NCBI RefSeq assembly: GCF_006345805.1
Contig: NW_021832312.1
Coordinates: 1 to 31,214, forward strand
Reading direction: 5' to 3'
DNA from: Octopus sinensis
Taxonomy: Eukaryota
DNA length: 31,214 nt
This document shows, one piece after another, positions 970 to 30,145 of the stretch; the first letter of the stretch is position 1, and each line of letters starts with the position of its first letter. Position numbers and translations under genes: made by a program. The notes under the pieces are model-generated. The model did not search any database and was not told the origin of the DNA. It saw only the letters and a list, made by a program, of their open reading frames with translations.

Positions 970-1036
<67 letters not shown>

Positions 1037-1274
1037 TATATATACATATATATAGTCTGACAATATATACTCACTATATATATATATATATATACGTATA
1101 TGTAAATATATACATACTCATCTATGCACGTGTGCTCATTATGGTTGCATAACGAAATACAGTGTCCCTACCAACAATTTGTATGTATTTATGTATGTAA
1201 ACATGCATGTATGTACGTTTGTATAATGCATTTATCTATGTATACAATATATATATATAGTATTTATCTATGTT

Positions 1275-1335
<61 letters not shown>
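970..1335. repeat. (TA)n-rich microsatellite tracts (970-1052, 1074-1094, 1279-1335)
   Basis: Direct reading; source of the YIYIYI ORFs. Confidence 0.95.
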
Positions 1336-1337
<2 letters not shown>

Positions 1338-1567
1338 AAGGCGACTTGCTGCCAGAATCGTTAGCACACCGGGCGAAATGCTTCGCGGTATCTTGTCTAC
1401 CGTTACGTTCTGAGTTCAAATTTCGCCGAGGTCGACTTTACCTTTCATCCTTTCGGGGTCGATTAAAGAAGTACCAGTTACGCACTGGAGTCGATCTAAT
1501 CGACTTAATCCCTTTGTCCTTGTTTGTCACCTCTATATTTATCCCCTTGTGGGCAATAAAGAAATAA
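1338..1567 (+). mobile_element. tRNA-derived SINE, group A (young tail)
   Basis: Head aaggcg..ctg(g/c)cagaatcgttagc (A box) and gagttcaaattt (B box); body cctttcatcctttcggggtcgat; tail ccccttgtgggcaataaagaaata. Many copies in the window. Confidence 0.9.
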
Positions 1568-1726
1568 ATATATATATATATATGTGTGTGTATGTGTGTA
1601 TTTTATGTAGGTAGATAGGTATGTATGTTATATATGCATGCATATTATGCGTGTGTTATCATAGTTTCCATGCTGCACGTGCTATGACTGTCGACTGCAC
1701 CACGTGCCTTCGTCAAATTTTGCATA

Positions 1727-1993
1727 TAAGGCGGTGAGCTGGCAGAATATATACATATAAGGCGGCGAGCTGGCAGAATCGTTAGCACGTCAGGCGAAAT
1801 GCTTAGCGGTATTTCGGCTGCCGTTACGTTGTGAGTTCAAATTCCGCCGAGGTCGACTTTGCCTTTCATCTTTTCGGGGTCGATAAATTAAGTACCAGTT
1901 ACGCACTGGGGGCGATATAATCGACTTAATACCTATGTCTGTCCATGTTTGTCCCCTCTATGTTTAGCCCCTTGTGGGTAACAAAGAAATAGG
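1727..1993 (+). mobile_element. SINE group A inserted in the mariner, preceded by a duplicated ~22-bp head (1727-1749)
   Basis: taaggcggtgagctggcagaat is repeated before a full copy at 1759-1993. Confidence 0.92.
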
Positions 1994-2439
1994 TAGATCT
2001 CATACCGACGCCCCCAGAAATGCTTGTAGGTTGAACACATGCATTTGAGTGGCATGCTCGTTTCAAGGTCCTTCGATGACGAGTGATCCAGACGACCAAT
2101 AATTTGCAAACACACACACAAAAGCAAGTTGGAGAATTCGTGAAGCAATCCATGGGGAACATCACTGAATATTCCATTAATTTTCTCTCCCTGACTGCAA
2201 TCAGTAATGGAACCTGCCAGGAGATTCTCTTAAAAGATCGTATTTCTTAGAAGTCTGTCTCCTTTCCCCGAGAATGTGACATTCGATCGAAAAGTGTGAC
2301 GTCATGATATATGCTTTGTACCAAGTGAGGCACGAGTGAGATATCTGGGTGCGGGTGTTTAGACGACGATGATTTGACACGGCTGACTGAACATAGGACC
2401 TATTTTGGCGACAGCGCGATTTAGAGCTGTAGGCATACC

Positions 2440-2550
2440 CCCCTCTCTCTCTCTCTCTCCCTCTCATACACACTCTGTCTTCCTCTCTTTGTGTGTCATA
2501 CACATACACACTTACGTACACGCGCGCACACACACACATACGCACACGCA
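2440..2550. repeat. (CT)n/(CA)n low-complexity insert within the mariner
   Basis: Direct reading. Confidence 0.85.
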
Positions 2551-3296
2551 CAAAAATAGGGCTGCAGAAATATAGATATACAGGTAGAGAGAGCGGGGTG
2601 GAGCGAGAACGAGAGGAATAATTGAATATCAAAAAAGTCAGCGTCGAATTATTGTTGTTGTTGCTTTGCTTTTCGAATTTTAGGTGTTCAGTGAGGCTTC
2701 ATTCTGCTCTCCAGTATTGATGAATTTCATATTTTTACAGTAAGTTTTTCAGATACTTGAGCCGTGAGAAAAAAGACATGCTATGTCTGCAGATGTTTTT
2801 TGCATCATAAGAAAGCGCCCACTCAAATCCCTGCCTCACAGAGCGATGCAGTTTTTGACAAAGAACAAAATATCCATCGCTCCACACTTTCTCTTTACTT
2901 AAGCTCTATCCCTTCTGGATCGCCTTAAAGGATATGCACAATGGGTAATTGGCCAAGGAGCCTGCGGACTTAGGGCCAATTCTGACCTATTCATGTTGTG
3001 GCTTGCTGTTGATAAATAAATACTATAGAGTCAATGCATTGATTTAACCAGGGGCATGCAGTTGTGCTAAGGTAGATCTGCTATCTGTAACTTTTCTGTG
3101 TTATCCAAGCTGAAATGCAGTTGAGAAACGGTACATGAAATTTAAACTGTATCACAAATTATATTCGACGGCTTCAAGAGGGGGATTTCCATAGAGATTT
3201 GGAGGAGTGGAAGACGACCCTCTTGGGTCACTGTTTTACGTTCCTAAGAAGAATATTTCGAATGATGGTGAAACCCCATAGCGTTTTTTCCCCTTT

Positions 3297-3325
3297 TTGA
3301 TAAAAGGTTTTACCCGAAACGTCGG
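3297..3325 (+). ncRNA. Highly degenerate minimal hammerhead-like motif
   Basis: UUGAUAA-AAGG UUUUA CCC-GAAAC-GUC-GG, similar to the motif at 23326-23356. The core is mutated. Confidence 0.35.
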
Positions 3326-4291
3326 ATCCCTTTCTTTTACTCCCCTTGGCGTTTTGAGCTTGAGTCTACTTATAGAGAAGCGAAACGAAATAGGAGAGTT
3401 TGTTTTTATGTAATATTTAGATACATACACACACCCACACACTCACTCATTCACTCTCTCTCACACACACATATACACACACACACGTGTCTGTAGTTTT
3501 TTAGTGGTTAAGTGCTGTTTGTAAGATACTAATGGTTTCATACCATACATTTCGCAATTATTAAGTCGTAGTTTGTTAGCGGGACACATAAGTGGGACAC
3601 AGCTTAATGCTTGCGTCTGCGAACTTGTGTGGTGTATGGTAGAGTCAGGAAGAATGTAAAAATGAGAGATGGAGAAAGATGGAATGTGAGAAAAGGAGAG
3701 ACAGAAGGTGAAATGGGAGAAATCTCCACTAATGCTATCTAAGGATCAAAGGACATTTTTCCCACAACAGGAAGGAAAATATAAACCAAGAGGAGAAAGA
3801 AAGAGAGAGAGAGAGTGATATGAGTGAGGGGGAAACTTGTGTGTGTTTGAGAGATTAAAAGACAAAGAGGGAAGTGAAATGACATGGGGAGTGGTAGGGT
3901 GATAAGAGGCGATAGCTTTTCCTGTGGGAGTGGCAAAGAGAATTTGTAAGAACGAATTTGGAATTGAAATAGCTTTGGAAAGTGGCGTTAACCGGAAGTA
4001 AAAAGGTGTGACAGGTGAAGGAAGGTGAATGTGGGTTGTTGAAGGGACTGTAGCAAATGTAAAAAGTAGAAATAAAGGGAGGGGAGAAAGAGGAAAGGTG
4101 TGAGGAATTGGAAAGAAATTACTGAAACTAAAGTTTAAAATGAAAGACGATGACTCATAGAGGAGAAAAGAAGAAAATATCATAACAGGTTTAAGAAAGG
4201 AAGGGAGGAAGGAAGGAAGGAAGAAAGAAAAGAAAAAGGAAGAAAGAAAGGAGGAAAATAAGAAGGAAAGAGACCAAGAAAATGTATAGGA

Positions 4292-4293
<2 letters not shown>

Positions 4294-4344
<51 letters not shown>

Positions 4345-4538
4345 AGTAGTAGTAGTAGAAGAAGAAGAAGAAGAAGACGAAGAAGAAGACGAAGAAGAAG
4401 AAGACGAAGAAGAAGAAGAAGTAGAAGAAGAAGAAGAAGAAGAGAAGAAGAAGAAGAAGAAGAGAAGAAGAAGAAGAAGAAGAAGAAGAAGAAGAAGAAG
4501 AAGAAGAAGAAGAAGAAGAAGAAGAAGAAGAAGAAGAA
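4294..4538. repeat. (GTA)n followed by (GAA)n trinucleotide microsatellite
   Basis: Direct reading; source of the 278-aa poly-S/F/T ORF. Confidence 0.97.
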
Positions 4539-4814
4539 ATTAATATTGCTGATGATGAGGGGGCGGTATGGTTAGGAGACACGCAACAGTCTCAGATTTC
4601 TTTAAATGGAACTGGACAAAAGAATAACGGTTTCAAGATGTTTCCAGAAAGACATAGGATCGGTATCGGGTCACAGACAGACTTTGATAAATTTGTAGAA
4701 CGATGTATTTGATTTTTCACAGTCGTAGATGTTAATGGAACCACGTTACGTATGGATTGTTTCATATGACAGGAGCTGGATTGAACTCGTCGCACGGAAA
4801 AAAAAACTTGCTTC

Positions 4815-5260
4815 TGGAAAGGAGCTAATCACTAGAAACGAAACTCTCCACTTGTACAGGGTTGGGAGTATAATTTCCTATTGGAGAAGAGTATAACGCT
4901 TTTAAAGGAGTTCGCCCCTGGACAAAAAATTGTCATTGAAGAAGAAATACCAATTTTTGAATTAACTTGCCACTGGAGCTCTCCGCGGAACAGGAAGTCG
5001 CCACTGAAGAGAAATACGAGACTGTAAATGAAGATTCCACTGGAGAAGAATATAACACTTTCAAAGGAGCTCACCATGGGACAGGAAGTCGCCACTGAAA
5101 ATAAATACCAGACTTCAAATGAAGTTACCAGTGAAGAGGAATATCACACTTTTAACAGGACTCACCACAGGACAGGAAGTCGCCACTGTAAAGAAACACG
5201 AGACTTTATAAAAGAAGTCACAGTTAGAAGAGAACTGAATTTTGCCGACAAATATAGATA
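4815..5260 (+). repeat. Imperfect 91-bp minisatellite built from ~18-bp subunits
   Basis: caggaagtcgccactg occurs at 4991, 5082 and 5173 (period 91), with a degenerate shorter unit at 4923. Confidence 0.85.
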
Positions 5261-5621
5261 GTATTCTAGCTTCGAATTGTAATGAGTATAATTACGTCAC
5301 ACAGTCTCTGTTTCAATCTTGCTGGATTGATTTAAGGATGTAGAAAGTTTTTCAGTCTAAAATTGTAGCATTGTCTGTTTGAAAACAAAGCACTGAAAGG
5401 TACCAAAGTATTGTTTTGAGTCAAAAGTTTTGGAATATTTTGGTAACTTAGTTGCTTCCTTCTTCAAGTTACCACAAAAGTAGCCTACCATCGTGTTGCG
5501 CTGTCTGAAGCCAGCTTTTTGATCTCACACTGATATCAGTTCTTCTCCTTTGAGACGAACTCCTTCATTGAAGCTTACGAGCGCAGGAAGTGAACCACAG
5601 GTTAGCAAAGAAGGTAGCAAA

Positions 5622-6142
5622 ATATTCGTTTCTGCTCTAGGCACAAAGGCACGAAATTTTTAGGGTGAGGTCCATTCGATTTGATCGACACCCAGTACAC
5701 AACTGGTGCTTAATTTATCGACCCCGAAAGGATGAAAGGCAAAATCGACCTCAGTGGAATTTGATCTCAGAACATAAAGACAGATGGAACACCGCTAAGC
5801 ATTTCGCCCAGCGTGCTAACGTTTCTGCAAGCTTGCTGCCTTTAAATATAAATATTCTTTTCTACTCTAGCTAGGCACAAGGCTCGAAATTTTAGGGAGA
5901 AGTCCAGTCGATTAGATCGGCCCCCAGTAAACAACTGGTGCTTAATTTATCGACCCCGAAAGGATGAAAGGCAAAGTCGACCTCAGTGGAATTTGATCTC
6001 AGAAAGTAAAGACAGTCGAAACACCGCTAAGCATTTCGCTCGGCGTGCTAACGTTTCTACCAGCTCGCCACCGTAATTTTATAAGAGGACTATATTCTTT
6101 TCTACTCTAGGCACAAGGCCCGAAATTTTGGGTGAGGGAGCT
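5622..6142 (-). mobile_element. Tandem SINE group A copies (5622-5843, 5851-6073) plus tail fragment (6092-6142)
   Basis: Reverse-complement A body (atcgaccccgaaaggatgaaaggcaaa) with an alternative tail tattcttttctactctag..gcacaagg. Confidence 0.9.
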
Positions 6143-6179
6143 AAACAGAATAGATATTAATTCTACAGTACCGTACTGC

Positions 6180-6400
6180 GTGAAAGCGCATGGTTTAGTG
6201 GTTAGAGTGTTGTAATCATCATCACAAGATTGCAGTTTCGATTCCCAGAAAACATTTCATTTTACATTGCTCTGGTCCAATCAGCTGTATAGAGTAATTC
6301 CTCGATGTATTAGCGTCCAGTTCAGGGCGAATGTTGTGATCCCGGCCATGAAAACCGGGTAAGCGGCCCTATGAGTCCTAACACTTGAGACAATATCTAC
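6180..6400 (+). mobile_element. Degenerate SINE group C
   Basis: gcgcatggtttagtggttagag..gtttcgattccc head and ggccatgaaaaccgggtaagcggccctatgag tail, homologous to 7238-7485. Confidence 0.75.
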
Positions 6401-6542
6401 TTACCGTAACTGTTTATAATGGTGCTTCTTTTTCTTCCTGTTTGCTGCTAGTGGGACTGAACTCGTGACCAGAAAGATACGTGATTTCAGTGGTTTAGGC
6501 ATAATTTTATGGTGTAAAATAACGCTGCAATGCGTGGCTCTC

Positions 6543-6946
6543 TTACTCTCTTTTTACTTGTTTCAGTCATTTGACTGTAGCCATACTGGAGCACCGCCTT
6601 TAGTCGAGTAAATCGACCCAGGACGTATTCTTTGTAAGCCTAATACTTATTCTATCGGTCTCTTTTGCCGAACCGCTAAGTTACGGGGACGTAAACACAC
6701 CAGCATCGGTTGTCAAGCGATGTTGGAGGGACAAACACAGACACAAAAACATGCACACACACATATATATATACATATATACGACGGGCTTCTTTCAGTT
6801 TTCAGTCTACCAAATCCATTCACAAGATTTTTGGTCGGCCCGAGGCTGTAGTAGAAGACACTTGCCCAAGGTTCCACACAGTGGGACTGAACCCGGAACC
6901 ATGTTGTTGGTAAGCAAACTACTTACCACGCAGCCACTCCTACGGC
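6543..6946 (-). mobile_element. tRNA-derived SINE, group B (full length, internal microsatellite)
   Basis: Reverse complement of ggagtggctgcgtggtaagtag..gggttcagtccc..ttgggcaagtgtcttc..ggcggtgctccag..atgactgaaacaagtaaa. Confidence 0.9.
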
Positions 6947-11835: not shown

Positions 11836-11865
11836 CATTTTTATGTAAGTTCAATGTTTCATATG

Positions 11866-12570
11866 AAGGCGACAAGCTGACAAGATCATTAGCAGCTCGG
11901 ACAAAATGCTAAGCGGTATTTTCTCCGAGATCGACTTTGCCTTTCATCCTTTCGGGGTCGATAAATTAAGTACCAGTTACGCACTGGGGTCGATGGAATC
12001 GACTTAATACCTATGTCTGTCCTTGTTTGTCCTCTCTATGTTTAGCCCCTTGTGGGTAATAAAGAAATAGGTATTTTCTCCGGTTCTTTACATTCGGAAT
12101 TCAAATCTCACTGAATTCAAATTTGCCTTCCCTCCTTTCGGGGTCGGTAAAATTAAGCACCAATCAAGCACAGAGGTCAATATGATCGACTTGTCCCCTC
12201 CCCTCAAAATTACCTCCCTTGAATTCTATAACCGACTGCTGTCACATTCAAAGGAAGTGTTGTGAGCATGAGCACTTATTTGCCATGAAAACCGAGTAAC
12301 CGGCCTCCATAGCAAGACCATTAGCAGCTTGAACAAAATGCTTAGAGACATTTTTCCGGTTCAAATCCCACAAAAGGCAAATTTGCCTTTCTTCCTTTCG
12401 GGGTCGATAAAATTAAGCACCAACCAAGCATAGGTTGATATGATCGACTTGTCCCACCTACCATCAAAATTTCTGACATTGAACTCTATAACCGACTGGC
12501 GTCGCGTTCAAGGTAAGTATTGTGAACATGGGTACTTATACGCCATGGAAATCGAGTAACCGGTCTTATG
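11866..12570 (+). mobile_element. Composite: old SINE A with a nested 5'-truncated young A (11928-12069), then a second A copy; both old copies are joined to group C-like tails
   Basis: 13-bp TSD ggtattttctccg at 11915-11927 and 12070-12082. 12110-12305 is repeated at 12360-12565 (..gccatg(a/g)aaa(c/t)cgagtaaccgg). Confidence 0.85.
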
Positions 12571-13537: not shown

Positions 13538-13639
13538 CAGGCGTGGCTGTGTGGTAAGAAGCTTGCTTACCTACCACATGGTTCCGGGTTCAGTCCCACT
13601 GCGTGGCACCTTGGACAAGTGTTATTCTACTATAGCTTC
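13538..13639 (+). mobile_element. SINE group B, 5' head only
   Basis: ggcgtggctgtgtggtaag..gggttcagtcccactgcgtggcaccttggacaagtg. Confidence 0.88.
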
Positions 13640-13692
13640 AAGCGTTGAGCCACTCAGCTAAATATTAATAAAAATATACATAAACTCATATT

Positions 13693-13790
13693 TTGAGTTC
13701 TATTTTTCCTGGTTGCATCAACATGCCAATATATGTATCCCTTAATGCATATATTGGCATGTTGATGCAACCGGGAAAAATAGAACTCAA
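13693..13790. repeat. 46-bp near-perfect inverted repeat with a 6-nt loop
   Basis: Arms 13693-13738 and 13745-13790; two mismatches; loop ccctta. Confidence 0.95.
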
Positions 13791-13887
13791 GAATACAACA
13801 AGGAGAAATAGTTAGACTAATGTAGAGCAAACGGAAAACTAGACAGAAGCTATAATGACGGGAAATTAAACAAAGACACGATACACG

Positions 13888-13970
13888 GAATATTCGCAGC
13901 TAAGTTTTTCTCTTCAGTCAATGGCGCAAAATATCATGGTGGTTTCGCGCCATTACCATTGGGACCACTC
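13888..13970 (-). ncRNA. Type III-topology hammerhead-like motif, copy 1
   Basis: GAGUG-GUC-C-CAAUGGU..GCCAUUG-A-CUGAAGA-G..C-GAA-UAUUC; non-canonical GAAU core. Confidence 0.45.
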
Positions 13971-14838
13971 AATTTTGCAGGTGCCAGTGCTGTTATTAAG
14001 CTACTGGGAAAAAGCTAGCGAATGTATACTAAGACAGAAACAAAGAAGCCATTATATAAATACAACAGACAAATAATTATGCATATATAACAGCAGGCAG
14101 CCTTGCGGCTATATACAACAGGAGAAAATATCTAATAATTATATATATACCACAAATACAAGAGAAAGAAATTTGCAACAATCAAACGAACTTAGTGCGG
14201 TTGCGCAAAAATGAAACTGAGTAAGTCCTAGAGGGCGTTGCAGAAGCTCAGACCAGCATGACCAGTCTAGTCAAAGGAAGGGCGAAAAGGAAGACCGCCT
14301 TCGTTGGACATAGGTCATATGGTATGGAAGAGGAAGTGTTGAGAGAGGGAAAGAGAAGCGACAGAGAGAGAGAAAAACAAAGAAAGGTACAAGGGAAGTG
14401 AGCAAGGGCGAAAATAGAGGGTAAAAGTAAAGAAAGAGGAAGAGTCAGAGTAGAGGTAGAAAGAGATAGAGTAAGAGGGAAAGAGGGGGAGACAGAGAGA
14501 GAGAGAACGAAAAAGAAGGGGAGACAGAGAGAGAAGAGAAAGATACAAGGGAGGCAAGTAAGGGCGGAAAGAGAGAGTAGGAGTGGAGAAAGAGATAGAG
14601 TAAGAGTAGAGGTGGAAGGAGGTATAGTAAAAGTAGAGAGAGAGAGTTAAGAGTCGCACAATAAATATTCAAGGAATATTTTTTACAAAAAAAGTAAGCA
14701 AAGGAGGGGAGCGCTGCGCTACCTGGATGTATTAAGAGAAAGAACACAATAAGGAGAACATTTAGACTAAAGCAGAACAAACGGAAAACTAGGCGAAAAC
14801 TTAATAGACAAGAAATTTAGACAACTACACGATACACG

Positions 14839-14919
14839 GAATATTCGTAACTGAGTTTTCCTCGTCAGTCAATGACCCAAAATATCAGTGGTTTTGCGCC
14901 ATTATTATTGAGACCACTC
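14839..14919 (-). ncRNA. Type III-topology hammerhead-like motif, copy 2
   Basis: GAGUG-GUC-UCAAU..AUUGA-CUGACGA-GGAAAACUCAGUUAC-GAA-UAUUC. Confidence 0.5.
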
Positions 14920-15059
14920 AATTTCGTAGGCACCAGTGCTATTAAGCTACTAGGAAAATACTAGAGAACGTATACTATCGTCTACCTTTTCTCTTTGTAT
15001 TCTTTCTGTTCAACCCTTGATACATCCATGTAGCGTAATACACATCCTGTTTGTTTAGC

Positions 15060-16418: not shown

Positions 16419-16633
16419 AAGGCGGCGAGCCGATAAAATCGTTTGCATGCCGGACAAAACACTTAGCTGCATTTTGTCTGTTTTTACGTTCTGTTTTCAA
16501 ATTCCGTCGAAGTCAACTCTGCCTTTCATTCTTTTGGTTTTGATAAAATTAGTCCCATTTGAACAATGGCATCGATGTAATCAACGTACTCGTTCCCAAA
16601 ATTGCCGGCCTTGTACCAAAATTTGAAATCAAC
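16419..16633 (+). mobile_element. SINE group A (older tail) with probable TSD
   Basis: Full head and body, flanked by tcaccaacaata and tcactaacaata. Confidence 0.85.
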
Positions 16634-16792
16634 ATTTTCACTAACAATAGCTGCCGGCTTTATCAAAAAGGCAATATCTCCTGAGCGAGCCTGCTTTAGT
16701 TGATGACAGAAGAAACATCATTTTGTCTGCTAAGGAATTTATGCATGCATGTATGTATGTATGTATGCATGTATGTATGTATGTATGTATGT

Positions 16793-24253: not shown

Positions 24254-24419
24254 AGGCGCAGGAGTGGTTGTGTGGTAAGTAGCTTGCTAACCAACCACAT
24301 GGTTCCGGGTTCAGTCTCACTGCGTGGCATCTTGGGCAAGTGTCTTCTGCTATAGCCCCGGGCCGACCAATGCCTTGTGAGTGGATTTGGTAGACGGAAA
24401 CTGAAAGAAGCCTGTCGTA

Positions 24420-25453: not shown

Positions 25454-25688
25454 AAGGCGGCGAGCTGGCAGAAACGTTAGCACGTCGGACGAATTGCGTA
25501 GCCGTATTTCCTCTGCCGTTACGTTCTGAGTTCAAATTCCGCCGAGGTCGACTTTTCCTTTCATCCTTTCGGGGTCGATTAATTAAGTACCAGTTACGCA
25601 CTGGGGTCGATGTAATCGACTTAATACCTATGTCTGTCCTTGTTTGTCCCCTCTGTGTTTAGCCCCTTGTGGGTAATAAAGAAATAGG
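25454..25688 (+). mobile_element. Young full-length SINE A with a perfect 17-bp TSD
   Basis: ggttcgagagggaaagg at 25441-25457 and 25687-25703. Confidence 0.95.
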
Positions 25689-25721
25689 TTCGAGAGGGAA
25701 AGGGTGATTGAAATTAATAAG

Positions 25722-26134: not shown

Positions 26135-26573
26135 TTGGCTTCAAATTCTGGCATAAGATCAGCAATTCTAGGATCAGTAATTTCGGGATTTTGTCGACTC
26201 CCCCGTATTCAAATGGTACTTGTTTTATAGACCCAGATGAAAGGATGAAAGGCAAAATGGACCTCGGCAGAATTTGACCTCAGAAAGTAAAACATGGATG
26301 TAATGCCGCTAAGTATTTTGTCCGGTATGCTAACGATTCTTATTTCTTTATTGCCCACAGGGGGCTAAACATAGAGGGAACAAACAAGGACAGACAAACG
26401 GATTAAGTCGATTACATCGACCCCAGTGCATAACTGATACTTAATTTATCGACCTCGAAAGGATGAAAGGCAAAGTCGACCTCGGCGGAATTTGAACTCA
26501 GAACGTAACGGCAGACGAAATACCGCTAAGCATTTCGCCCGGTGTGCTAACATTTCTGCCAGCTTGCCGCCTT
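26135..26573 (-). mobile_element. Composite SINE A: young copy (26341-26573) inside an older copy
   Basis: Junction gctaacgattct|tatttcttta. Confidence 0.9.
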
Positions 26574-26589
26574 TAGTGAAGTGAAATAT

Positions 26590-27013
26590 TGCTTTCAAAT
26601 TTTGGCACAAGGCTAGCAATTTTCGTGGGAAGAATTAAGTCGATTATATCGACCCCAGTATTCAACTGGTACTTATTTTATCGGACCCCGAAAAGATGAA
26701 AGGCGAAGTCAACCTGGGCAGACATTGAACTTAGAACGGAAAGATGAACGCTAAGCATTTTGCCCGGCGTACCAACGATTCTTATGTCTTTATTGCCCAC
26801 AAGGGGCTAAACATAGAGAGGACAAACAAGGACAGATAAAAGGGTTACGTCGATTACATCGACCCCAGTGCGTAACTGGTACTTAGTTTATCGACCCCGA
26901 AAGGATGAAAGGCAAAGTCGACCTCGGCGGAACTTGAACTCAGAACGTAGCGGCAGACGAAATACCGCTAAGCATTTCGCCAGGCATGCTAACGTTTCTG
27001 CCAGCTCGCCATC
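26590..27013 (-). mobile_element. Composite SINE A: young copy (26783-27013) inside an older copy
   Basis: Junction ccaacgattct|tatgtcttta; flanked by ttagtgaagtgaaatatt and ttagtaaagtgaaatatt. Confidence 0.9.
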
Positions 27014-27711
27014 TTTAGTAAAGTGAAATATTAATTGACAACGATGATATTTTATTAGCGGATCACACAAATGATTAGTTTCACAATTATGCTAAAAAAA
27101 AGTAATTGGTTATTAAATAGAGTTGTAATTTATTACAACCACGTCTGAGATTAATGGTTTGTTACAAAGATAGGAGTTATATGAGGGTTAATTTTAAAAC
27201 AGTAGAAATAGATTTAAATGTGTAACACTGTGAAGAGGTTAACGTTTTTAAAAAAATCAGAAACACGCAACTGTAATAGAGAGAGTGTTTAAACAATTAA
27301 TTTCAGAAGATTAATATAAAAAATTTATATCTGATAAGGTGTGGGGGAAAATGAGACGAGGAAGTGACATAAAAAAAAATATCTTAGTTGAAGTTAAAAT
27401 GTTTAGAAATCAGATTGGATTTCATTTTAAACGGTTTCCTAGTACAAACGAATGTGAAAAATATATGTGAGGAAATACCTTTAAGCCTATTTCGTTGATG
27501 AGGGAAATATATAAGGTTAGATTCCTTTTTGGCTTTTTTGTGTGTGTTTTTTTATGATGAAGTTCCGGAAGTAATTACTTCGGTTTGTTGTTTGGAATAG
27601 AAGAGCGAGAAATGATGGAAGACACGCTATAGCAGAGACTAGTGTTGAGGAAGAAAAATCACACACACACACACATATTATATATATATATATATAATAT
27701 ATATGTAAATT

Positions 27712-27822: not shown

Positions 27823-28236
27823 TTTTTATTCTTTTACTCTTTACTTGTTTCAGACATTTGACTGCGGCCATGCTGGAGCACCGATTAGTCGAACAATTCG
27901 TCCTCAGGGCTTATTCTTTGTAAGCTTAGTATTTATTCCATCGGTTTCTATTGCCGAACTGCTAAGTTATGGGGACGTAAACACACCAACATCGGTTGTC
28001 AAGCGATGGTGGCGGGGACAGACGCACACATACACATAAATATATATATGTGTATGTGTGTGTGTGTGCGTACGACGGGCTTCTTTTAGTTTCCGTCTAC
28101 CAAATCCACTCACAAGGTTTTGGTCGGCCCGAGGCTATAGCAGAAGACACTTGCACAAGGTGTTACGCAGTGGGACTGAACTCGGAACCATATGGATGGG
28201 AAACAAGCTTCTTACCGCACAGCCACTCCTGCACCT
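27712..28236 (-). mobile_element. SINE group B (27822-28236) plus an extra B tail fragment (27712-27775)
   Basis: Reverse complement of the B consensus; catgctggagcacc occurs twice. Confidence 0.9.
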
Positions 28237-29766: not shown

Positions 29767-30006
29767 TATGGTTGCCCCTTCGTTATCGAGTATGGCCATT
29801 GCACGAAGCTTAACTGTTACTGGTGCTGTGATCGAATGTGACTTTTTAGCCCAGCTAAAGATCTACAATGTCTTGTACAAAATTGGCAACTAAAACCTTT
29901 ACTGGTAATAGCCGACTGTAGTTGTAACTGGACTTCATGTACCATTGCATGTCGTTTAAGTCCTCCTGCCGAATTACACTCTCTTCCACATGCCCGACAG
30001 ATATGA

Positions 30007-30008
<2 letters not shown>
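29767..30008 (-). mobile_element. 3' end of an RTE-like LINE: two C2H2 zinc fingers, stop codon and short 3' UTR
   Basis: HICRACGRECNSAGGLKRHAMVH..FSCQFCTRHCRSLAGLKSHIRSQHQ* (stop at 29817), then ggccatactcgataacgaaggggcaacc. Flanked by (CATA)n tracts. The C-x2-C-x-R-x-C-x-S-x2-GL-x2-H pattern is typical of RTE C-termini. Confidence 0.72.
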
Positions 30009-30054
<46 letters not shown>

Positions 30055-30059
30055 GTTGT

Positions 30060-30145
30060 TGAAATTCCAATGAAGGAACCTTGGATCTGGGTTAGAAACC
30101 GGCTCTTTCTCTATTCGCAAGAAACCTTGAAATAGAACTGAGTAT
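30060..30145 (+). mobile_element. Possible Penelope-like tail with a decayed hammerhead
   Basis: CCAAUGA-AGG-AACC..GGUU-A-GAAA-CCGG-CUC; the core is doubly mutated. Confidence 0.3.

Follow-up and report, generated by a model that had tools for sequence, protein, structure and literature searches.

A putative non-autonomous PLE family of Octopus sinensis with a predicted hammerhead motif of split core

Layout of the locus

The window analysed here is a stretch of 31,214 nt of Octopus sinensis DNA (NCBI RefSeq assembly GCF_006345805.1, contig NW_021832312.1, positions 1 to 31,214 of the forward strand). We found an element on its minus strand, with the following parts.

13745..13795, minus strand: inverted copy of the end of a neighbouring high-copy repeat, fused to the 3' end of the element
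13789..14032, minus strand: 3' repeat (pseudo-LTR), last ~18-25 nt missing, fused to the inverted end of the neighbouring repeat
14033..14739, minus strand: body of the ~950-nt unit, non-coding, with a CT-rich minus strand and 72-85% identity to other genomic copies
14740..14978, minus strand: 5' repeat, the 5'-truncated upstream unit of a partial tandem
14978..15057, plus strand: inverted 5' arm (repeat end and ~40-nt tail), which ends at the family's second fixed 3' end and is followed by (TA)n; bridged by a public contig

An earlier note on this DNA had described direct repeats of ~260 bp that are visibly diverged. We recovered both repeats and their divergence (~82% identity): in a local alignment, 200 of 236 aligned positions are identical between 13789-14032 and 14740-14978, and BLAST gives 81.6% identity with gaps (E 1e-59). 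Their length, however, is about 244 bp by local alignment, and 13767-13788 has no alignment to the right repeat. The minus-strand GTC triplets at 14912-14914 and 13963-13965 are 949 nt apart, as the note had reported, and each has a CUGAnGA box downstream of it (14868-14862 and 13917-13911, respectively). The note had seen no credible ORF between the repeats, and we agree; the longest ATG frame in 13789-15057 has 51 codons on the plus strand and 15 on the minus strand, and the stop-free frames of the spacer are low-complexity. G+C is about 40%. Public contigs bridge both outer junctions (record 8, 14921-15025, 0 differences; record 17, 13684-14008, 9 differences), so the layout is not an assembly artefact.

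The left and right repeats are 82.0% alike as compared to a family median of 83.7% (465 pairs), which is rank 0.23 among family pairs. Judged by their sequence, the two are best read as old pseudo-LTRs and not as an LTR pair; one caveat of the earlier note, that they may be tandem PLE pseudo-LTRs, is the correct reading, given the partial tandem, the truncation and the tail pattern. At the other end, a 108-nt palindrome (13689-13795) spans the end of the neighbouring repeat and its inverted copy, an arrangement that suggests that the element's 3' end was replaced by the inverted neighbour end through a template switch or hairpin repair at insertion. The ends of the locus lie in (TA)n and inside another repeat, where a target-site duplication is unreadable.

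The neighbouring repeat, at 13654-13738 on the plus strand, is the terminal part of a short fold-back repeat with a very high copy number (1167 candidates), other copies of which have a hairpin body upstream and end in (TA)n. A dispersed SINE-like repeat of ~100 nt is present at 13540-13639 and also near 6842-6940, 24261-24356 and 28131-28229. A second dispersed repeat, of ~236 nt, is found on both strands at 1338-1573, 1759-1994, 11837-12072, 16419-16654, 25454-25689, 26341-26574 and 26783-27016, and a 91-nt tandem unit is present in 2.5 copies at 4975-5206. A minus-strand frame free of stops, at 29817-30107, has two zinc fingers of C2H2-like type (weak Pfam matches, below cut-off) and is perhaps the end of a LINE.

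Copies elsewhere in the genome

In the genome, we found 281 candidate copies of the repeat and 172 of the spacer; the best 40 of each were scored, and those of the repeat are 78-84% identical. The spacer is not unique to this locus, and the repeat-spacer-repeat order, whose recurrence the earlier note had named as a check, is present again at L004, L006, L037, L040, L047 and L055. This recurrence at six other loci, together with the continuity of the spacer with the left repeat in other copies, contradicts another caveat of the note, that the repeats may be two independent insertions.

Minus-strand copies share a common 3' end and have variable 5' truncation points through the spacer, and the repeat end precedes the unit start in 9 of the 9 starts examined, forming head-to-tail junctions. 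When we placed 64 ends from 54 loci, 38 were at the first site, 10 were at +35 to +42 (two of which may run on), 9 ran into the next unit and 7 were elsewhere. There are thus two fixed 3' ends ~40 nt apart, and the inverted arm in the window uses the second. Most ends run into TA, CA or TG repeats. A (TA)n insertion preference is present, which is common to Neptune elements too and therefore not diagnostic for Naiads. Most full-length copies are 1.0-1.3 units and not long arrays. Three of seven upstream partial repeats have starts that cluster 59-69 nt before the predicted cut site (see below); as they pass this site by ~60 nt, they would not have been copied from pre-cut linear RNA, and the overreach fits a circle or an uncut tandem transcript alike.

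Many fold-back inverted duplications of 200-550 nt are also found near family copies (L004:802-1354, L011, L014, L015, L019, L022 and L029).

The PLE features that we found in the dispersed family are partial tandem pseudo-LTRs, a fixed 3' end, variable 5' truncation, an inverted 5' copy and a tail on 10 of the 64 ends, and we are confident that it is a non-autonomous PLE. The earlier note's description of a non-autonomous ribozyme-bearing retroelement suits this recurring ORF-less unit and the hammerhead predicted in it.

A predicted hammerhead in each repeat

In hammerheads of type SGC, which cleave in vitro, the blocks are arranged as cleavage site, then GAAA, then CUGAnGA (Eckert et al. 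2023, PMC10085705); the account given there takes A9 and G10.1 to be necessarily joined and the stem II strand to lie directly after CUGAnGA. We found this block order in the repeats, with the GAAA strand inside the stem I span. The predicted parts, all on the minus strand, are listed here.

13905..14012: predicted split-core SGC-order hammerhead, left copy
14012-14007 with 13910-13905: Px, left copy
14006-13985: hairpin P0, left copy
13984-13980 with 13951-13947: stem II, left copy
13978-13972 with 13932-13926: stem IIIb, left copy
13968-13964 with 13943-13939: stem III, left copy
13962-13956 with 13924-13918: stem I, left copy
13946-13943: GAAA, left copy
13917-13911: CUGAnGA, left copy
between 13963 and 13962: predicted cut, left copy
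14856..14958: predicted hammerhead, right copy (CUGAnGA 14868-14862; predicted cut between 14912 and 14911)

The GUC sites that the earlier note had put forward as cleavage triplets coincide with the cut sites of this model.

To count base pairs, we used anchored helices in 64 rows from four families (34, 25, 3 and 2 rows), because MAFFT shifted the stem II of family B by one column in both alignments and the stem II count of the tool (61.5%) is an understatement. Left out before the counts were L025 (a near-duplicate of L024), L064 and L139 (the same places as L019 and L138), L062, L077 and L084 (pattern matches with no helices by eye, L077 lying in a transposase-like frame), L096 (a single member) and L124 (truncated). 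Rows of families other than that of the locus were chosen with patterns in which the core and stem III are fixed. We found 350 of 384 pairs in stem I, 304 of 320 in stem III and 267 of 320 in stem IIIb, the last not being recovered in family C in the register used. With a 5' strand from upstream of the cleavage block, stem II has 284 of 320 pairs; the canonical SGC stem II, with the strand after CUGAnGA, has 96 of 320 and was rejected, so block C is not unbroken here. Slid registers of the anchored helices give 0.15-0.64. Stem I changes on both sides between families; stem III differs between two pattern groups, but the patterns fixed it. Covariation over 16 pairs is 0.293 as compared to 0.205 when shuffled (0 of 500 shuffles as high), a value that relatedness inflates and that rests on about five families and thus on few independent events. 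The loop that links stems III and IIIb contains, in most rows, GA steps in both of its strands, and we take it to be kink-turn-like.

Two more helices are found where the core is split. The P0 hairpin, directly before G10.1, has 114 of 124 pairs in the locus family. Px, which pairs the strand after A9 with the strand just 5' of P0, has 163 of 186 pairs in the locus family and 0.82 and 0.88 in two others, although it is a low-complexity helix whose slid registers reach 0.79-0.81. The Px counts use rows in which P0 was located (14 of 25 in family B and 15 of 21 in family F); in the locus family, automatic P0/Px detection succeeded in 1 of 34 rows since P0 is bulged, and column counts were used instead. 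RNAfold predicts Px and P0 unprompted in 3 of 3 sequences folded. Folding z-scores for the whole motif are modest (-1.6 to -2.0), and nested fold predictions have rival hairpins in place of stems I and III. We infer that A9 and G10.1 would be joined indirectly, through Px and P0, and not by a direct bond.

All six helices pair across families of different sequence, and pairing is kept through sequence change across five families in the genome. In the locus family, each core position carries its hammerhead nucleotide in most copies (23-31 of 31). The core is complete in 12 of these 31 copies, which were found by DNA similarity, and G12 is changed in 8, as expected from neutral decay. In intact copies, the predicted fold is probably a working ribozyme.

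We also considered other readings of the same letters. A type III reading would need a stem II between CUGAnGA and the next GAAA, where none can form, and the type III comparison drawn in the earlier note gives way to the SGC order. A type I reading through a downstream GAAU has no stem I partner, and a descriptor search of both repeats gave no type I hammerhead. Among 103 Rfam matches at E<=1 in the window there are no hammerhead families, only microsatellite-driven miRNA matches.

The copy in the window has decayed. G12 is the general base of hammerheads, and in the right copy it reads A (14895); from this sequence the right hammerhead is likely inactive. In the left copy, the core is intact, but the first pair of stem I is a C-A mismatch, and stem II and Px have a single mismatch each. 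Because of the changed G12 on the right and the mismatches in stems I and II on the left, release of a ~950-nt RNA from the locus, which the earlier note had thought possible, is unlikely, and we consider it quite improbable that the locus still makes unit-length RNA. The window's copy is thus a fossil, and its interest rests on the family.

Sister families

The SGC-order pattern gave 511 matches as compared to 42 in a reversed control, in several families with different stem I sequences. With a generic descriptor run on 25 unrelated loci, we found a fifth family (F) with unrelated helix sequences, and the pattern of this family gave 1504 matches as compared to 0 in the control. Among the first 100 matches listed there are 16 tandem pairs 840-886 nt apart. 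Family-F units are ~860-880 nt, non-coding and CT-rich (for example L138:1409-2641 on the plus strand, and L143), and L138:2300-2445 (plus strand) holds an intact copy of the motif. Within one locus, the two repeats agree at 95-98%. All of 20 rows pair in both stem I and stem II, and stem I shows a compensated T-A/C-G swap (14 and 6 rows); a stem II strand taken after CUGAnGA would have A-C as its first pair in 20 of 20 rows. Family F appears from these data to be a young sister family, often with intact tandem pairs.

Summed contig depth over part of the family-F spacer is 14,000-36,000 in X1 (guessed to be an RNA run) as compared to 1,000-6,600 in X3 (kind unrecorded), contig depth being no measure of expression. 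The spacer is barely covered in two other runs guessed to be RNA.

The link to Naiads

The layout described for PLEs and Naiads comprises partial tandems, an inverted 5' copy, a 30-40 bp tail and a (TA)n target (PMC8557442, Craig et al. 2021), and the PLE tail has been traced to two internal RT start sites (PMC11167929). Naiads are reported to be without a canonical hammerhead, eight of them are flagged 'HHR_half_core' (Naiad_Ovul among them), and the portions of PMC8557442 consulted describe no permuted fold. In excerpts of about 40 consensus ends from the supplement of PMC8557442, we could make out by eye the split wiring, including P0 and a Px-like pairing, at the 3' ends of Naiad_Obim, Naiad_Ovul and Naiad_EuTe (clam shrimp). 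By the same reading, Naiad_Smim (spider) and Naiad-4_Dst (ostracod) have the SGC order with a 3-bp stem II after CUGAnGA, and Naiad_Ptep and Naiad_Sdum have the SGC order with imperfect parts. Naiad-3_Dst and Naiad_Esco gave no clean fit by eye, and the nematode Naiads examined look type I-like, with a long stem II.

In the octopus, the family-B motif is downstream of a Naiad ORF end in 15 of 25 loci. Two of the 15 have weak RT matches (E about 1e-3, below the Pfam cut-off), and Pfam found nothing in three Naiad ORF-end pieces. The locus family itself is without the Naiad ORF (N-terminal GIY-YIG and C-terminal RT), and the earlier note's other check, for a copy adjoining RT or GIY-YIG, turned up none joined to RT or EN among the loci examined. 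Among the best-scored candidates, an autonomous partner with the 3' end of the locus family was present in 0 of 25 GIY-YIG loci and 0 of 25 Naiad-end loci. The Naiad partner is therefore proposed from architecture and target only. Because a partner with a matching 3' end was not found and a younger C-terminal-EN PLE is present, we are less sure that the mobiliser is a Naiad than that it is a PLE.

This young PLE has RT plus a C-terminal GIY-YIG behind a zinc-finger-like linker, in frames of up to 781-883 codons (L105, L106, L115, L120 and others). It has at least two types of 3' UTR, with GAAAC after a short hairpin and no exact CUGAnGA by eye. A type I hammerhead-like descriptor match is located at L102:2620-2690 (plus strand), downstream of an opposite-strand GIY-YIG remnant.

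Discussion

We think that the locus is, with good probability, one old, partly tandem insertion of a PLE-ended non-coding family, in which each repeat carries a predicted SGC-order hammerhead that takes stem II from upstream. The enzyme that copied it is likely a borrowed reverse transcriptase of Naiad type. Once the RNA is folded, the Px and P0 helices would replace the A9-G10.1 bond and hold stem II at the core, and stem III would run on through the kink-turn-like loop into stem IIIb. The RNA would cut after GUC; a tandem transcript cut twice would free a unit-length RNA, which may then be closed to a circle. The nick in (TA)n would be made by a PLE protein, which would begin to copy within the RNA at either of two positions, located about 190 and 230 nt downstream of the cut. 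Reverse transcriptase reading past one unit would leave pseudo-LTRs. That the circle is the usual template we hold tentatively, at a little under even confidence.

Instead of circles, the family may be a non-autonomous PLE copied from uncut linear tandem transcripts, with the fold acting as a structural signal (e.g., for RT binding or RNA stability) or as a slow ribozyme and circles playing no part. We treat this as a serious possibility, if one that we would bet against. Hammerhead cleavage is dispensable for insertion of a Poseidon PLE in vitro and no RNA-seq ends in Anolis are at the cut site, both as described in PMC11167929; the rarity of long arrays among full-length copies is also in keeping with it, and a transcription start may lie where three of seven upstream partial repeats start, 59-69 nt ahead of the cut. 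However, the core nucleotides are the majority state in the locus family and recur in five families and, by eye, in arthropod Naiads. Such a recurrent core is hard to explain without catalysis, which counts against a purely structural signal, and ribozymes of the SGC order do cleave in vitro (PMC10085705).

Two further accounts seem to us barely credible. With two direct repeats 949 nt apart, each with GUC upstream of CUGAnGA, and no ORF, the locus recalls a plant-like LTR retrozyme with type III hammerheads in its two LTRs, but there is no stem II between CUGAnGA and a GAAA, the repeats are no closer than the family median, and G+C is about 40% as compared to >55% in plant retrozymes (PMC7229834). 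The 5' truncation of copies already contradicts such an element, and fixed 3' ends, tails and inverted arms add to this. Repeats 82% alike, at rank 0.23 among family pairs, could have arrived as two independent short-repeat insertions flanking unrelated DNA, with hammerhead-like words present by chance; this is just as implausible a history for a spacer that is continuous with the left repeat in other copies, an order that recurs at six loci and pattern counts above their controls (511 vs 42; 1504 vs 0).

The partly tandem insertion with a split-core hammerhead, which we prefer, can be set beside the known systems. Like type-SGC hammerheads (HRIMA-1 and variants, PMC10085705), the motif has the same block order, core nucleotides, short linker between stems I and II and crossing helices; unlike them, it takes its stem II strand from upstream and has the extra helices P0, Px and IIIb. 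HRIMA-1 comes from metatranscriptome contigs carrying hairpin ribozymes (PMC10085705), and the words octopus, Naiad and Metazoa do not occur in the text and supplement text of that report as searched, where hosts named in alignment files may be missed. The family resembles Naiads (PMC8557442) in the (TA)n target, partial tandems, inverted 5' copy and 30-40 bp tail, and the same wiring ends Naiad_Obim and Naiad_Ovul; it differs from them in being without an ORF and in a 3' end that is BLAST-dissimilar to the Naiad loci examined. In the literature searched, including PMC13725137 and with thin coverage of subscription papers, we found no description of this motif in PLEs.

The animal non-LTR retrozymes are likewise non-coding, with low G+C, tandem hammerhead units and a proposed circular-RNA route of mobilisation by PLEs (Cervera and de la Pena 2020, PMC7229834; Li, Clavereau and Pollet 2026, 10.64898/2026.07.22.740005). 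They have type I hammerheads and units of 150-450 bp, often as multimers (PMC7229834; 10.64898/2026.07.22.740005), in contrast to the SGC-order split-core motif and the units of 850-950 nt, mostly in 1-1.3 copies, found here. The 2026 survey, as described, searched type I motifs only (10.64898/2026.07.22.740005). Plant LTR retrozymes also have two hammerhead-bearing repeats about 0.6-1 kb apart and no ORF, together with a type III motif, true LTRs, a PBS, a PPT, 4-bp duplications and high G+C (PMC7229834; 10.64898/2026.07.22.740005); the type III motif and a true LTR pair both fail at our locus. As far as its sequence goes, the locus element is retrozyme-like but has no type I motif, and SGC-like but has a broken block C.

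Beyond the locus, we suggest, as a working proposal that falls somewhat short of an even chance, that the hammerheads of Naiads and of their non-coding parasites have a topology that none of the six proposed block orders covers, namely SGC with a backbone that is interrupted between A9 and G10.1 and closed again by a helical junction. In this genome, the topology would drive animal retrozymes of 850-950 nt, old and young (>1000 motif copies, many intact tandem pairs), that are cut to unit-length circles and recopied by a PLE RT from two internal starts. With a young family in which two intact motifs are 840-886 nt apart, the question of circles in PLE parasites is directly testable.

If this is true, the hammerhead core withstands an interruption that permutation theory took to be impossible, and descriptor searches would therefore have missed such ribozymes. 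The 'half core' puzzle would also be accounted for in Naiads, a PLE clade that is reported to be dominant in many invertebrate genomes and to have no canonical hammerhead, and non-circularly permuted hammerheads would gain a home in animal chromosomes.
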